NCBI RefSeq assembly: GCF_000026545.1
Contig: NC_011601.1
Reading direction: 5' to 3' (one strand)
Origin: Escherichia coli O127:H6 str. E2348/69
GTDB lineage: Bacteria; Pseudomonadota; Gammaproteobacteria; Enterobacterales; Enterobacteriaceae
Length of the DNA: 64,000 nucleotides
Part shown: piece by piece, positions 5,864 to 12,739 of the stretch
Layout of the letters: each line of letters starts with the position of its first letter
Position numbering within the stretch: position 1 is the stretch's first letter
Position numbers and translations under genes: made by a program
Notes under the pieces: model-generated
Database searches by the model: none
Told to the model about the DNA's origin: nothing
What the model saw: only the letters and a program-made list of their open reading frames with translations

Positions 5864-6940
5864 TCAAGCCGTTATCGGGATGCTGTTGATCTGCCTGTTT
5901 TGATTACGCAGTAATGTATAAACTTCGCGTGAGATATAGCGCTTCAGGCAGCGTATTGCTTCCATTTTTGTATGCCCTTCCGCTACTCGTCTGGCGACAT
6001 ATTCCTTCGTTTTATCGTCAGTTCGCAAACGTCCGATGGCAATGATGTGAAGTGCACTATTTGCAGCACGATCTCCACCCCGGTTAAGTCGATAACGATT
6101 CGTTTTTCCTGAAGATACGGGAACAGGGCTGACACCACACAGTGCCGCAAAACCTGATTCTGATCTTAATCGTTGGGGATTGTCTCCTGCCGTGATCAGC
6201 AACTGCGAAGCGCTTTCGTATCCAATAGCATTACGTTTAATCAGTTCAGGCGCCAGCTCATCGACAATTGCCGCAATCATGACATCCAAATCAGCGATTT
6301 CGTCATGTAACTCGAGATAGCGTCGGGCAAGGGACTTTAATGAAATACGATAAACGTTGGTAACATTGCGGTATTCACTGGCATCAGGCCGCCAGGATCC
6401 CAGAGTCCTGATGAGCTGCATGCGCGTCATATTTCTGAGCTGTTCACGTAATTCATCCGGGGCAGAGATAATATTGGAATGGATAATCTGGAGAGCGACT
6501 CTGCGGGCTGATATTGCTGTTTTTCGGCAAGTTTTTAATACCCGCAGAGACTCAATCATGCCATTGCGCGTTTTGGGTGTGACGGTTCTTATTCCGGAGA
6601 ATGCGGCGTGAGCGGCACATTCAGCATCAATCGTGTCACTTTTACCCCGTTTGCGTCGCTCCATCCGATCTGGCGCAGTCACCTCAAGAACGTCTAACCC
6701 GGCATTCTGTAAATAGCGAAGCAGACCTGATCCATAGGTGCCTGTACACTCAACACCAATTCGCTTTAATGCCCCAAACGAAGTCATCCATGCCAGCATC
6801 TGCCGGTAACCTTGCCGTGTTGTGGAGAAAAACTGGGTCCCCAGAACTTTATTGTTCTGATCTACGACAGCGGCAACGTGCAGATCTTTATGTGTATCCA
6901 CGCCACCCACAACAGCGGTTTCCGTAACTTTACCTGCCAT
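5864..6940 (-). CDS. IS110-family DEDD transposase/recombinase
   Basis: 358-aa ORF with N-terminal RuvC-like GVDTHKD / ECTGTY motifs and C-terminal SGK...NRYRL...GG region typical of IS110 family. Confidence 0.9.
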   Translation of the reverse strand: MAGKVTETAVVGGVDTHKDLHVAAVVDQNNKVLGTQFFSTTRQGYRQMLAWMTSFGALKRIGVECTGTYGSGLLRYLQNAGLDVLEVTAPDRMERRKRGKSDTIDAECAAHAAFSGIRTVTPKTRNGMIESLRVLKTCRKTAISARRVALQIIHSNIISAPDELREQLRNMTRMQLIRTLGSWRPDASEYRNVTNVYRISLKSLARRYLELHDEIADLDVMIAAIVDELAPELIKRNAIGYESASQLLITAGDNPQRLRSESGFAALCGVSPVPVSSGKTNRYRLNRGGDRAANSALHIIAIGRLRTDDKTKEYVARRVAEGHTKMEAIRCLKRYISREVYTLLRNQNRQINSIPITA

Positions 6941-7220
6941 AACAGAGCTCCTGTGAGGAAACAGAGTTGAATCTCCAGACAGATAACCCGGACAGGACAG
7001 TAACGAGACAAACCGTCAGGCCCTTCTTGAGTCACGCGCATCGGTGAGGAGACGCCTCGCATGAAGGCGCTTCCGGCAACCGACAGGTCCAGGGCAGGAC
7101 AAAAGGGTCGATCGCTGTGTGAGTCAGGATGCGGGAAGGTCTTCACTGCATCAGTAATCACACCAGTCTGGTTAAACAGCAAACAGAGTGATGATAAAAA
7201 CTGATACCGGCATTATTACT
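6941..7220 (-). ncRNA. candidate bridge (guide) RNA in the 5' non-coding end of the IS110-family element
   Basis: non-coding 280 nt upstream of recombinase; 7111-7119 identical to left flank 7221-7229; 7087-7097 is reverse complement of right junction 5840-5850; segments near 7020-7027 and 7051-7058 match the element right end 5848-5858. Confidence 0.45.
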
Positions 7221-8080
<860 letters not shown>

Positions 8081-8176
8081 TGGAGCACCTGTGTTGTTCT
8101 GAGGTGAGCATATCACCTCTGTTCAGGTGGCCAAATTCAGTGTGCCACTACATACTGACCCCAGAAAGTTGGACAG

Positions 8177-8712
8177 TTAAACACGAGGCATATAGGTCTG
8201 ATTCCGATATTCAATTGGAGTCAGACCTTTTAATTTCAGGCTAATTCTTCTGCTGTTGTAGTATTCAATATATTCCGTAACAGCATCCTTCAGCTCGCTT
8301 ATATTACTGAACTCATCAAGATAAAAACACTCCGACTTTAAGGTTCCAAAGAAACACTCCACCACAGCATTATCCAGACAATTGCCTTTTCTGGACATGC
8401 TTTGTTTAATACCATGTTCTTTAAGGACTTCTCATACGATACTGCCATCCCTGGTCAGAGTGCAGAACAGGATGCTCGTGAGGATTAAGCTTTTTGAATG
8501 CCTGATCGAGCATATTCCCGACCATGTTCATCACTGGTCTTTCCGAAAGGCTGTAAGAAATAACTTCGTTGTTGAAGAGATCTATTACTGGAGACAAATA
8601 CAGCTTGCGCCCATTGACTGCAAATTCAGTAACATCGGTAACCCACTTCTCGTTTGGCCGCGTAGCCTTGAAATCTCTTTGGAGAACATTGGGGGCGGTT
8701 TGCCCTACCTCT
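8177..8712 (-). pseudogene. IS150 OrfB (InsK) 3' fragment, additionally frameshifted
   Basis: two ORFs (8421..8750 and 8177..8398) in different frames; about 11 nt missing between ...WQYRMR and [15 protein letters not shown]. Confidence 0.75.
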
Positions 8713-8722
8713 CCTCTGTAAG
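8713..8722. repeat. target-site duplication, left copy (CCTCTGTAAG)
   Basis: identical 10-mer directly flanks both ends of the IS50-like element. Confidence 0.8.
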
Positions 8723-10272
8723 CTGTCTCTTGATCAGATCTCCTGATCAAGAGACTTCATCACCAGGTAACCCTCAACCATATCCTGAAGTCTGAACCAG
8801 CCATCCCACATGACTACCCAACCGGGGCGACCGGTGCGTTTGCTGTCATGCCATCGCCCCAGTTTCGCCAGTTTCAGACAGGCCCATTTCAGTGTCGGCA
8901 TCTGTGACGGAAGCGGTTTTCCTTCCAGCTTAACCCACAGCAGTTTCCACTCTGTCGGCGTCAGTATTTTCTCACAGCTGTCATTTTGTGTTTCTTCACT
9001 GATACCGCCCTGCCGCAGGCCCAGCACCCGCACCGCGATAAACGCCTTGATAACCACCATGCGCTCGAGGTTATCCCGGGTCTGCATTCGCAGCGATTCC
9101 ACACATGTACCACCACTTTTCCACGCCTTGTGGTATTCCTCTATCAGCCAGCGTCGCTCGTAATGGCTGACGATACGTCGCGCATCGGCGGCACTCGCCA
9201 CTTTTTCTGACGTCAGCAGATGCCAGCAGGCGCCGTCCTCTGCCTGCTCCCGGCAACAGACATACGTGAGCGGGAGCGCCTGGCCGCTGTTGTCGGGATT
9301 TTTTATGCTGACTTCGCTGTAACTGATGAACATCCGGGCCTGGCGGGCTGCCCGCCCGCCTTTTTGCATCACATTCAGCGTGTGGCTTCCCGCGGTTGCC
9401 AGGACTTCCGGCAGTTCGAAGAGCTTGCCGGGTGCTTCTTCCAGCCGGCGATTCTGTGCTGCACGCACCACGAAGCGCTGCCCGTGGCTGACTTTATAAT
9501 GCAGGTAATGCCAGATATCCGCTTCCCGGTCACAGACAGTGATTACCCGTTTCTGTATCTCCCCCAGCCGTTCGGCCATGCGCTCCGAAGCCTGCTGCCA
9601 GCGGTAACTTTCTTTTTCTTCATAGGGACGTTCTTTTCGCTGGTGCTTAACACCGTAGGTGTCCGTGGCACGACTCCAGCGCTGCTGTTCGATAAGACCG
9701 ACTGGCAGGGCGCTGTCGGGGGCGTACATCAGGACAGAGTGAGCCAGCAGCCCGCGCGTCTTCGGGTTAGTGGTGGTATTCCCCAGGTCATCAGATGCCG
9801 TACTGTGACTGAAGTTAATGGTGGTGGTGTCTTCCAGCGCGAGGAGCAGCGGATGAGCCTCACATGCCCTTACAGTGGCGGTAAATCCGGCTTCGGCAAT
9901 GGCTTGCGGGGACACAGACGGGTTACGTATCAGGCGGTACGCACCTTCAACCTGAGCAGTGGACTGGGATGATTTCACAATAGAAAGACCTGCATGCTGA
10001 GCGAGAGAAGAGGCCAGTGACACAAGGCGTCGTGTACGACGCGGATCACCGAGACGGGCATGTCCAAACTGCTCGTTAGCCCATGAATAACAATCAGAAA
10101 GTACCATAACAGACCCGAAGAAAATGAAATATAAGAGAAGATCAACGGGTGAGGAAAAAGTTCAAAAAATCGCTGCCGGGGAGGAAGGAAACTACCGGAT
10201 GGAAAGAGTCCCCCTAAAGCAGACTGACAGACATCACAAATCCCCGGGTGGGGATTTGTGTATAAGAGACAG
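8723..10272 (-). mobile_element. IS50-like IS4-family insertion sequence (about 1550 bp)
   Basis: 19-bp ends CTGTCTCTTGATCAGATCT (8723-8741) and rc CTGTCTCTTATACACAAAT (10254-10272); single transposase ORF; flanking direct repeat. Confidence 0.8.
8734..10107 (-). CDS. IS4-family (Tn5/IS50-like) DDE transposase
   Basis: 457-aa ORF; conserved [38 protein letters not shown] motifs; stop codon lies inside the terminal repeat. Confidence 0.9.
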
Positions 10273-10282
10273 CCTCTGTAAG
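10273..10282. repeat. target-site duplication, right copy (CCTCTGTAAG)
   Basis: identical to 8713-8722. Confidence 0.8.
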
Positions 10283-10577
10283 AGCGGTATCGCTTGACCT
10301 TAATCGCTGCCTTCAGTGAGAGGATTCCCATCAGGCGCTGAACAGCTTTATGGTTAATCTGTTTCCCTTCTCGATGAAGAGACAGCGTTACCCTACGGTA
10401 TCCGTATCGGCCTCTATTCTCATGATAAATCTCACCAATACGCTTTTTAACGTCCGCATACTTGTCAGGCTTGCTGAGAGCCTTTAGATGGTAATAAAAC
10501 GTACTGCGCGGTATCTCCGCAGCCCTGAGAAGCTCATCAAGAGGATAAAACTGCCTTAGCTCGTTGAGTACTTTCAC
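10283..10577 (-). pseudogene. IS150 OrfB (InsK) 5' fragment
   Basis: GTG-initiated frame MKVLNELRQFYPLDELL...KRYRSYRG then reads into the IS50-like insert. Confidence 0.8.
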
Positions 10578-11095
10578 TTTTTCGTGGGATGAGCTAAGGC
10601 TTTCAGCTTTTTTAGATACACAAGCCGCGTTTCAAGAAATCGAACTTGCCTTTCAAGATCCTCAATGCGTCGGTCTTTTGACAGCTCCAATGCTGATGCC
10701 GCTTTTTCTGGATCAACTGATATTGCAATGTTTCTTTTGGTGCCAATCTTGAGCGCGCGTAAACCAGCTTCTCCGCGCTCTTCATAAACCTTCAGCCACC
10801 TGGCTACAGAACCACTACCAGCAAGCATAAAGTGAGCAGCAGCCTGATTAAGGGACATGTGCTGCTCGATCACAGCTTTCATGACCTTAATACGCAACTC
10901 AGGAGCAGCACTAACACCTTTAGGTTTGGGAATTAAACCTTTTTCTCCATGTTTTTCATAGAGGGCAACCCATGTCCTGACCTGGGTTCGGGGGACACCA
11001 AAACGTGCCGAGATGATCCTGTAACCATCATCAGTAGTGAAGTAGTGATTCACGACTTCAAGGCGCTTTTCAAAAGGGTATTTTGGCTTTGACAT
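10574..11095 (-). CDS. IS150 OrfA (InsJ)
   Basis: 173-aa ORF MSKPKYPFEKRLEVVNHY... Confidence 0.9.
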   Translation of the reverse strand: MSKPKYPFEKRLEVVNHYFTTDDGYRIISARFGVPRTQVRTWVALYEKHGEKGLIPKPKGVSAAPELRIKVMKAVIEQHMSLNQAAAHFMLAGSGSVARWLKVYEERGEAGLRALKIGTKRNIAISVDPEKAASALELSKDRRIEDLERQVRFLETRLVYLKKLKALAHPTKK

Positions 11096-11334
11096 ATCAG
11101 GGGCTATTCCATTTCATCGTCCAACAAAATGGGTGCAGTACAGTTGATAGAAATATCGGTCGGGGCCTTCGTCTTTCTGATTCCCGGTTAGCCTGAAAAC
11201 AGAAAGTCTCAGGCACCCGTGAGCATCCTATGTGGTTTCCTTAGGGTCGAAAATAATCACCTGACGAAATTGCGTGCTGTTTTCCAGAATTTTTCGTCAT
11301 TCGGTTTAGTCAGTTTAATCATTCGTTACTCTCG

Positions 11335-11778
11335 CAAGGCCGTGGATTTGCCGTTGTCGCCAGCGAAGTACGGACACTCGCAAGCCGCAGCGCCCAGACG
11401 GCGAAAGAGATTGAAGGCTTGATCAGTGAATCAGTCAGGTTAATTGACCTGGGATCGGATGAGGTGGCAACGGCAGGGAAAACCATGTGCACTATTGTTG
11501 ATGCCGTCGCGAGTGTCACACATATCATGCAGGAAATCGCCACCGCCTCGGATGAACAAAGTCGAGGCATAACGCAGGTTAGCCAGGCGATTTCTGAAAT
11601 GGATAAGGTGACGCAACAGAATGCTTCTCTGGTAGAAGAGGCCTCAACGGCAGCGGTGTCCCTTGAAGAACAGGCGGCACGATTAACTGAGGCGGTGGAC
11701 GTATTCCGTCTGAACAAACATTCTGTGTCGGCAGAACCTCGCGGAGCTTGTGAACCAGTTAGTTTTGCTACGGTGTGA
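11335..11778 (+). pseudogene. trg: methyl-accepting chemotaxis protein Trg, 3' fragment only
   Basis: frame encodes MCP signalling domain from [12 protein letters not shown]... to C-terminus; no 5' part of the gene, IS cluster lies upstream. Confidence 0.75.
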
Positions 11779-11815
11779 AAATGTTAAAGGAGGGATCGAC
11801 AGATCCCTTCACCTT

Positions 11816-12739
11816 TCAGAACGGCATTGATTTTCGAATAGCGTTAATCATCAACTGGCAACCAGAAGAGAACGTCGCATCTACGCGGGTCAGTATTCCA
11901 ATCGGTTCGCCTGCACCATGTCCCGGAACAGGCAGGGCTACCAGCGTGGCATGACGCAGGTCGTCTTTTACAGCGCCAGAAGGGACAAACCACACGTAAT
12001 CGTATTCAACCGTAAGTTGACGAGATAGCGAAGCAGACAGCGTTTCGATACAACCCGAAGGAATTTTACATCCCTGGCTCTGCACTAATGCATCTGAATG
12101 CTGGCGTGGCGCAGTGCCTTCTGGTGATACAACGACCGGCCATTCCAGCACCCGGTTTAGCGTTACGTTCTCCTGAAGTAGCGGGTGATTGGGGCGGACA
12201 ACCAGCTTCAGCGATTCAAGAAACAGCAGTTCGTAATTAAGCCCGTTCATCAGTTCAGGATCTGACATCCGACCAATGCCGATATCGATTTCCCCGGTTT
12301 TTAAACCCGCCAGAATCATAGGGTTACTCATTGTCGCAACTTGCAAGGTCGTCTCTTTTTGTTGCTGATGAAACTGACCTATAACCGAAGGTAATATCCC
12401 TAGTGCCGCAGTAGGTAGCGCACCAACCCTGACGACATCATTATTAAGACCTTCTTTACGATGAAGCGACTGTCCGGCAGTGTTGATGGCGTCAAGAACT
12501 CTGACTGCATGCGTTAAAAATTGTTCGCCGGGTAAGGTAAGTTGCGCCCCCTGACGACCACGCTCAAACAAGCGAGCGCCCGTCAGCTGCTCCAGTTCAT
12601 TCAATGTCTTAGAGAGCGCAGGTTGACTCAAATTAAGGGTTTCAGCCGCGCGCCCCAAAGTTCCTTGTTGTGCGACAGCTACGAATGTATGAAGGTGGCG
12701 CAAACGGATGCGCTGACTAAACAGACTATTTTTTTCCAT
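11816..12739 (-). CDS. ydcI: LysR-family transcriptional regulator YdcI
   Basis: 307-aa product from internal ATG of ORF 11816..12880; N-terminal HTH. Confidence 0.85.
   Translation of the reverse strand: MEKNSLFSQRIRLRHLHTFVAVAQQGTLGRAAETLNLSQPALSKTLNELEQLTGARLFERGRQGAQLTLPGEQFLTHAVRVLDAINTAGQSLHRKEGLNNDVVRVGALPTAALGILPSVIGQFHQQQKETTLQVATMSNPMILAGLKTGEIDIGIGRMSDPELMNGLNYELLFLESLKLVVRPNHPLLQENVTLNRVLEWPVVVSPEGTAPRQHSDALVQSQGCKIPSGCIETLSASLSRQLTVEYDYVWFVPSGAVKDDLRHATLVALPVPGHGAGEPIGILTRVDATFSSGCQLMINAIRKSMPF

Follow-up and report, generated by a model that had tools for sequence, protein, structure and literature searches.

A complete copy of the IS50-subgroup insertion sequence ISEc13 within IS150 of EPEC E2348/69, and the target motif shared by ISEc13 copies

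What is the IS50-like element that interrupts a copy of IS150 in Escherichia coli O127:H6 strain E2348/69, and how did it arrive there? The element lies in a stretch of 64,000 nucleotides of contig NC_011601.1, which was analyzed as a whole and is called the window below. A first reading, made from the letters of the window without database searches (the sequence-only reading), described an IS50-like element with Tn5-type ends and a divergent transposase, and implied that it was new. In the present study, we compared the element with real IS50 and Tn5 sequences, with annotated insertion sequences, and with the corresponding unoccupied site in another strain, and then examined the junctions of many further copies. 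We have little doubt that the element is a complete and probably active copy of the catalogued ISEc13 (IS4 family, IS50 subgroup) in EPEC E2348/69, and that its transposition into a resident IS150 disrupted orfB and left that IS150 inactive.

The element (8723-10272, minus strand) is 1550 bp long and matched the annotated ISEc13 copies in E2348/69 and in other E. coli at 1550 of 1550 positions. In a megablast search of complete E. coli genomes, each of the full-length 100% matches of 1550 bp was annotated as "IS4-like element ISEc13 family transposase", and the encoded transposase was the same 457-residue protein as RefSeq WP_000244358.1. By the ISfinder convention, isoforms share more than 95% DNA identity or more than 98% protein identity. 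Measured in this way, the window element, with 100% DNA identity to the annotated copies and a protein identical to WP_000244358.1, is near-identical to ISEc13; it is not an isoform of IS50R/L, to which it shows 41.3% protein identity and 45.6% DNA identity. The name ISEc13, as we apply it to the window element, rests on the RefSeq annotation and on usage in published surveys. The region from 6500 to 12500 of the window was 100% identical to three E2348/69 assemblies, and its whole length was matched by no other genome. This ISEc13 copy is located among a cluster of dead insertion sequences.

Both ends of the element are of the Tn5 type. At one end, the terminal 19 bp CTGTCTCTTGATCAGATCT (8723-8741, plus strand) are the inside end (IE) of IS50/Tn5; they contain two GATC sites and hold the stop codon TGA of the transposase gene (8734-8736, minus strand). 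At the other, the terminal 19 bp CTGTCTCTTATACACAAAT (10254-10272, minus strand) are of the outside-end (OE) type; they differ from the Tn5 OE at two positions (4 and 18) and from the mosaic end likewise at two (17 and 18). The Tn5 ends used in the sequence-only reading were compared with those of a real IS50, carried by plasmid pMAK2 (L004), whose ends are CTGACTCTTATACACAAGT (OE) and CTGTCTCTTGATCAGATCT (IE). The sequences used proved to be correct; the claimed identity of one terminus with the inside end extended over 19 of 19 positions, and the two differences claimed between the other terminus and both the outside and the mosaic ends were confirmed at the positions given above. CTGTCTCTTGATCAGATCT and CTGTCTCTTATACACAAAT each occurred once in the 64-kb window, where about 0.01 or fewer chance matches would be expected with two mismatches allowed. 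A composite transposon with a second ISEc13 copy was considered and rejected, as the end searches revealed no second copy in the window.

According to the review of the IS4 family, elements of the IS50 subgroup are 1350-1550 bp long, have ends of the form CW------Y---CA-A--W-, and generate direct repeats of 8-9 bp. The size of the element, 1550 bp, fits this range, and both of its ends, which begin with 5'-CT, agree with the consensus at every specified position. Since ISEc13 and IS50 are only 45.6% identical in DNA and 41.3% identical in protein, the identity of their ends reflects strong constraint.

Each end is accompanied by a perfect palindrome. On the IE side (8725-8755), arms of 13 bp (8725-8737 and 8743-8755) enclose a loop of 5 nt, and the three GATC sites at this end (8732, 8737, and 8745) all lie inside the palindrome. 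The sequence-only reading had placed the three sites within an 11-bp inverted repeat at 8727-8753; the sites are indeed inside the repeat, but its extent had been underestimated. The transposase ends in ...KSLDQ, and these C-terminal residues are encoded in the inner arm. On the OE side (10235-10260), arms of 11 bp (10235-10245 and 10250-10260) enclose a loop of 4 nt, and the palindrome overlaps positions 13-19 of the OE-type end. Folding of both palindromes was more stable than that of most or all shuffled controls (for the IE side, z = -3.95 on the plus strand and -2.77 on the minus strand). The arms on the IE side were constant in all the variant copies that we read, the loop alone being changed, and the palindrome on the OE side was kept in a variant of 95.7% identity, where the loop is different and an A-to-G change has produced a G.T pair. 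We rejected a function as intrinsic terminators, because neither hairpin is followed by a T-run within the element. A search for Rfam families inside ISEc13 gave none, with only a chance-level match to sR5 (E = 0.12). Insulation against read-in transcription, or stabilization of the 3' end of the mRNA, may be offered as guesses at the roles of the palindromes.

The transposase gene (8734-10107, minus strand) is a single uninterrupted open reading frame of 457 codons for amino acids. Its product matched the Tn5 transposase structures with E = 6e-84 over residues 6-453, and 184 of 446 aligned positions were identical (41.3%); the DNA identity over the whole element, compared with IS50, was 45.6%. 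A DNA-binding domain (residues 8-65), a DDE catalytic core (D93, D193, and E323, with the YREK residues Y316, R319, E323, and K330), and a Tn5-type dimerization domain (residues 377-452) were recognized, in agreement with the Pfam matches Tnp_DNA_bind (PF14706), DDE_Tnp_1 (PF01609), and Dimer_Tnp_Tn5 (PF02281); the NCBIfam model NF033590 scored 514 bits against a cut-off of 160. D93/D193/E323, Y316/R319/K330, and W295 are the equivalents of Tn5 D97/D188/E326, Y319/R322/K333, and W298, respectively. The IS4-family review defines the family by the DDE residues and by Y-(2)-R-(3)-E-(6)-K, a signature located in region C1. The ISEc13 transposase has both, with the signature in C1, and is encoded in a single frame with no programmed frameshift. 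Its homology to the Tn5 transposase extends over the full length, including the N-terminal DNA-binding and the C-terminal dimerization domains, as in the IS50 subgroup. The alignment bore out the description of a 457-residue transposase that shares Tn5 motifs and is clearly diverged; combined with the ends (19 of 19 positions at the IE and 17 of 19 at the OE), it shows that the structural part of the sequence-only reading was right.

A further detail of that reading has to be amended. In Tn5, Met56 is reported in the literature to have a role in the synthesis of the inhibitor protein, and Glu54 and Ala56 of the window transposase had been taken as the counterparts of Tn5 Glu54 and Met56. The two residues are literally as described, but they are not homologous to those of Tn5: in both HMMER and MAFFT alignments, Tn5 Glu54 falls on Thr50 and Met56 on Gln52 (CAG), and Glu54-Gly55-Ala56 of ISEc13 align with Glu58-Gly59-Ala60 of Tn5. 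The absence of Met at the aligned inhibitor-start position holds nevertheless, the residue there being Gln52. No in-frame ATG, GTG, or TTG was found between codons 45 and 64, and the start candidates nearest to the aligned position are GTG44, GTG65, and ATG127. At the Met56 position, ISEc13 has no start codon for a Tn5-type inhibitor.

Between the OE-type end and the ATG lie 165 nt of leader and promoter region (10108-10272, minus strand). The only GATC in this region (10140-10143) is situated some 35 nt ahead of the start codon, within the motif TGATCTTC, which IS50 also carries at the Dam sites in front of its transposase gene. No promoter passed a scan for the sigma-70 consensus upstream of the transposase gene.

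How ISEc13 chooses its targets was examined by reading the junctions of about 40 other copies. These comprised copies on several chromosomes and plasmids of E. coli, a 98% variant, and a 1564-bp variant that is 95.7% identical to ISEc13 and was found in Salmonella, E. fergusonii, and other contigs. After repeated sites had been merged and two recombination-swapped copies (L021/L022) had been re-paired, 27 independent sites were obtained. Each flank was anchored on its own duplication boundary and read towards the duplication. Duplications of 8 bp were the most frequent (20 sites), followed by those of 9 bp (6 sites), and the single 10-bp duplication was that of the window copy. The same empty site had been used with 8 and with 9 bp in two cases (L005/L012 and L010/L017), and two sites had been taken in both orientations (L007/L008 and L035/L040). 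All 54 half-sites had C at positions -4 and -2. Position -3 was C in 39, T in 13, and G in 2; position -1 was T in 29, C in 18, G in 7, and A in none; and position -5 was C in 36 of the 54. The target of ISEc13 is 5'-(C)C-Y-C-B / N8-10 / V-G-R-G(G)-3', where the slashes mark the borders of the duplication. The rule was derived on 21 sites and then proved valid at 12 of 12 half-sites in 6 further sites of the 1564-bp variant. We found no description of an ISEc13 target preference in the literature searched; one may stand in ISfinder or in other papers.

Many of the sites are loops of strong GC-rich hairpins, with convergent or tandem genes on either side and with the flanking A/T runs typical of intrinsic terminators. 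For genome annotation, the target rule explains both the location of most ISEc13 copies in intergenic terminators and the repeated use of the same sites. At the window site, the half-sites CCTCT and AGCGG are separated by 10 bp, and the invariant positions fit in the 10-bp register only. This one case suggests that the half-sites, and not a fixed ruler, set both joining positions. We also considered a compensating rule, in which the length of the duplication equals 16 minus the spacing of the half-sites; it was rejected because one empty site gives either 8 or 9 bp (L005 vs L012, L010 vs L017) and because simple half-site anchoring accounts for all the sites.

The choice of target might be structural instead, with the transposase or a host factor recognizing the extruded hairpins or cruciforms of terminators, so that the C/G pattern would be simply what E. 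coli terminator stems look like. Many empty sites do fold to strong hairpins whose loop holds the duplication (L010, L011, L019, and L024 are examples), but at L001, L015, L033, and L035 the arms pair poorly (2-3 of 6 complementary positions) and C is nonetheless present at -4 and -2 on both sides. The polarity was always a C-run on the 5' side and a G-run on the 3' side, never the opposite, and the window site, in the coding sequence of IS150, is only a weak palindrome. We thus regard structural choice as unlikely, and recognition of the sequence itself is favored because the poorly pairing sites keep the invariant Cs.

The history of the window site could be read from an unoccupied counterpart. 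In strain 2022H047 (L003), an intact IS150 with its programmed frameshift occupies the same chromosomal place, between an IS3-family element and a trg remnant. Its empty site, ...CCCTACCTCTCCTCTGTAAGAGCGGTATC..., contains the 10-mer CCTCTGTAAG once. In the window, the 5' part of IS150 (10283-11142, minus strand; orfA and the N-terminal part of orfB) ends in the IS150 terminal repeat ...GGGTGCAGTACA, and the 3' part (8151-8722, minus strand; the C-terminal part of orfB), whose left boundary is approximate (8140-8151) and which is intact in L003, is annotated in RefSeq as 'IS3 family transposase, missing N-terminus'. One copy of CCTCTGTAAG (8713-8722), which is IS150 orfB sequence, precedes the element, and the other (10273-10282) adjoins the OE-type end. 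The window and the 2022H047 IS150 differ by exactly 1550 + 10 bp. Since the empty site has one 10-mer, the repeat represents a true duplication of 10 bp of target, and the element was inserted cleanly. On the minus strand, orfB is split at the codons SYRG, just as the sequence-only reading had proposed. Because ISEc13 lies within orfB, this copy of IS150 is inactivated.

A duplication of 10 bp falls outside the 8-9 bp given for the IS50 subgroup, and 26 of the 27 ISEc13 sites had 8 or 9 bp. The length is nevertheless firmly fixed, because the termini of the element are known from other copies and the nine bases adjoining its two ends are unequal (CTCTGTAAG vs CCTCTGTAA), so only the 10-bp register fits. 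A Tn5-like 9-bp duplication with one ambiguous base was excluded by the termini of about 40 other copies and by the single 10-mer in the empty site. It is very improbable, in our estimation, that the element is an immobile relic or that the 10-bp repeat is not a footprint of transposition, as it would be if it consisted of a Tn5-like 9-bp duplication and one fortuitous base or had arisen by recombination. The atypical length, both for ISEc13 (1 of 27 sites) and for the subgroup, would agree with such an origin, as would the existence of ISEc13 copies that have no duplications through recombination between copies (L006; L021/L022); against this, the open reading frame and both ends are intact and the same as in about 30 other copies, the bases abutting the ends allow no other register, the empty site has exactly one 10-mer, the flanks are contiguous IS150 sequence, and the invariant C(-4)/C(-2) are obeyed by the window site in the 10-bp register only. 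A clean transposition of ISEc13 into IS150 is the reading that we retain.

That the element had previously been uncatalogued is hardly credible, for although the literature search gave no characterization paper and only the name ISEc13 in surveys, the identical protein and element are called ISEc13 by RefSeq in hundreds of genomes and MobileElementFinder, which detects known elements, gives the same name. ISEc13 is an established name in published surveys of mobile elements, and MobileElementFinder reports it as such. The novelty implied by the sequence-only reading must thus be abandoned, because the element, which matches at 100% identity and under its RefSeq name, is a catalogued member of the IS4 family, the very finding that the reading had proposed as its own refutation. 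ISEc13 was absent from the text lists in the supplements of the IS4-family review, and literature searches on Tn5 homologs, on terminator-targeting insertion sequences, and on insertion sequence activity in E2348/69 gave nothing relevant.

Of the 5426 complete E. coli genomes, 873 contained full-length ISEc13 (coverage of 80% or more), and ISEc13 or its variants were found on plasmids of Escherichia, Shigella, Salmonella, and Klebsiella. The three E2348/69 assemblies contained 27, 29, and 30 copies. About 30 identical copies, in numbers that differ between three laboratory lineages of one strain, suggest recent activity; the differences among the assemblies could also have arisen by deletions instead of new insertions.

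A mechanism of insertion can be proposed, for which the residues and domains were taken from the ISEc13 protein itself and the chemistry and the control by Dam from Tn5, whose transposase is 41% identical. The N-terminal domain of the 457-residue DDE transposase would bind both 19-bp ends, one of the IE type and one of the OE type, and the ends would be paired in a dimeric synaptic complex. As in Tn5, the element would probably be excised by the hairpin cut-and-paste route, and its two 3'-OH ends would then be joined to staggered positions in the target. Targets are of the form C-Y-C-B / N8-10 / V-G-R-G, mostly in the loops of GC-rich terminator-like palindromes, usually with a duplication of 8 bp; in the window copy, the spacing of CCTCT and AGCGG by 10 bp would have led to the unusual 10-bp duplication. 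Dam methylation, both at the GATC sites within the IE-type end and at the one near the transposase promoter, probably damps the activity, as in IS50. In Tn5, Dam inhibition of the transposase promoters and of the binding and use of the ends is documented in the literature. The analogy with IS50 drawn in the sequence-only reading is reasonable, and Dam control is plausible because the GATC sites of the IE are identical to those of IS50 and E. coli is Dam+.

We further offer, tentatively and with more doubt than conviction, the view that, within the Tn5 branch, ISEc13 is naturally selective for its targets. In the synaptic complex, each half would read C-Y-C-B directly 5' of the attacked phosphate, and the stagger between the two strand transfers could flex between 8 and 10 bp to suit the spacing of the half-sites, which would direct ISEc13 to the loops of terminators. 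Because the ends of ISEc13 are identical (IE) or nearly identical (OE and mosaic end) to those of Tn5, the transposases of the two elements may also cross-mobilize each other's ends.

The finding itself matters little, being one further copy of a catalogued insertion sequence in a well-sequenced strain. The remaining interest is comparative and lies in the identical IE, the near-mosaic OE, the long subterminal palindromes, the flexible stagger of usually 8 bp, and the strict motif. ISEc13 is a natural relative, at 41% identity, of the most widely used transposase in genomics, and it has an exact Tn5 IE and a near-mosaic outside end; nonetheless, it makes mostly 8-bp duplications and follows a strict and symmetric target motif. 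If confirmed biochemically, it would be a tool for asking what in a Tn5-type transposase sets the stagger and the target preference, and Tn5-like enzymes that insert with another bias could possibly be developed from it.

Among known systems, IS50/Tn5 (IS50R transposase; PDB 1MUH, 1MUS, and 4DM0) is the closest to ISEc13 in design. Both have one open reading frame running from OE to IE, with the stop codon inside the IE in the same context (ATC TGA TCAAGAGACAG), and 19 of 19 IE positions and 17 of 19 OE positions are shared. IS50, too, has three GATC sites at the IE, the third just inside it. The equivalents of the DDE residues, of YREK, and of Trp298 are kept, and the N-terminal motifs LGDPRRTxRLV and EGAYRxIRNP as well as the C-terminal dimerization domain of the Tn5 type are common to both proteins. 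ISEc13 is slightly longer than IS50 (1550 vs 1534 bp) and has a longer leader (165 vs 92 nt), and unlike IS50 it has long perfect palindromes next to both ends and no start codon at the position aligned with Met56. Tn5 makes 9-bp duplications and has a weak target preference, its weak consensus being reportedly A-GNTYWRANC-T; in contrast, the duplication of ISEc13 is usually 8 bp and its motif is strong. Unlike Tn5, ISEc13 is not known to form part of a resistance transposon. The window copy has the same sequence as the other ISEc13 copies and differs from them in its duplication of 10 bp, where 20 of the other sites have 8 bp and 6 have 9 bp.

Outside the subgroup, the motif GGG(N)5CCC has reportedly been found as the target of IS231A. 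The IS4-family review describes insertion specificity for IS231 and ISRm22 and a 'spectacular' specificity for target arms in some elements of the IS4 subgroup; for the IS50 subgroup, its text mentions nothing of the kind. IS231A and the elements of the IS4 subgroup resemble ISEc13 in their DDE/YREK transposases of the IS4 family and in a target preference that is symmetric or arm-specific. However, they belong to other subgroups, begin with 5'-CA where ISEc13 begins with 5'-CT, generate duplications of 10-13 bp, and recognize a different motif.

Twenty-seven insertion sites of ISEc13 were compared, namely the site in the window (8713-8722) and those from loci L001 and L005-L044 on chromosomes, plasmids and other contigs. 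They share the target motif 5'-C-Y-C-B / N8-10 / V-G-R-G-3', in which the slashes mark the boundaries of the duplication, and C was invariant at half-site positions -4 and -2 (54 of 54). The duplication was 8 bp long at 20 sites, 9 bp at six, and 10 bp at one. GC hairpin loops resembling terminators were frequent among the 27 sites, and identical sites had been used repeatedly and in both orientations.

The flanks of two copies in E. coli CP148541.1, L021 (around 2.31 Mb) and L022 (around 2.37 Mb), have been swapped: the left flank of each pairs with the right flank of the other as an 8-bp duplication. This crosswise match indicates that the two copies took part in an inversion or a recombination spanning about 60 kb. 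The copy around 681 kb in E2348/69 LT827011.1 (L006) has a canonical half-site on either side despite the lack of a duplication.

Among 5426 complete E. coli genomes, 2991 contained some match to ISEc13, and only 873 had a full-length copy (at least 80% of the element covered). Most matching genomes carry partial fragments, 90-99% identical and typically one per genome, and many of these are located on conjugative F-type plasmids; this distribution implies that the fragments are probably old remnants that have been inherited widely.

The region at about 6000-11800 of the window is a 'graveyard' of insertion sequences. Its elements are, in order, an ISEc21 (IS110 family) transposase gene up to about 6940, an IS3-family element (about 7212-8080) that is frameshifted and truncated, the IS150 that ISEc13 interrupts, and then a trg gene without its N-terminus (11335-11778), which adjoins ydcI. 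Strain 2022H047 has intact versions of both the IS3-family element and IS150. A match to the Rfam sok antitoxin (RF01794; 11066-11218, minus strand; 70.3 bits, gathering cut-off 59) covers the whole model and consists of the last 77 bp of IS150 and 76 bp of the flank adjoining the truncated trg. Since the match spans both the IS150 end and the flank, it suggests either that IS150 was inserted into a hok/sok locus or that the RF01794 seed contains IS150 sequence. In strain 2022H047, the far side of the IS cluster holds a gene for a Hok toxin (L003 1-95).

Terminator-like hairpin-plus-T-run sites, overlapping or adjacent, lie antisense to the transposase gene (plus strand; 9187-9199, 9279-9297, 9342-9360, and 9592-9604); five were observed, whereas shuffled sequences gave an expectation of 1.1. 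A possible role would be to block transcription coming in from the IE side.

Perfect subterminal palindromes are present on the IE side (8725-8755, 13-bp arms) and the OE side (10235-10260, 11-bp arms), and both overlap the predicted transposase-binding ends. The inner arm of the IE-side palindrome encodes the transposase C-terminus and nearly repeats IE positions 3-15 in inverted orientation. In variant copies, changes in the palindromes are confined to the loops or keep the pairing.

The ends are polymorphic among copies, as seen in L016, L018, L021 (CP148541.1), L025, and L030. A C-to-T change at IE position 18 (ATCT to ATTT), by which the second GATC is lost, occurs in several copies of one strain, and the ends of L025 are degenerate. 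In the 1564-bp variant, OE position 18 is G, as in the Tn5 OE, so that position 4 alone still differs from Tn5.
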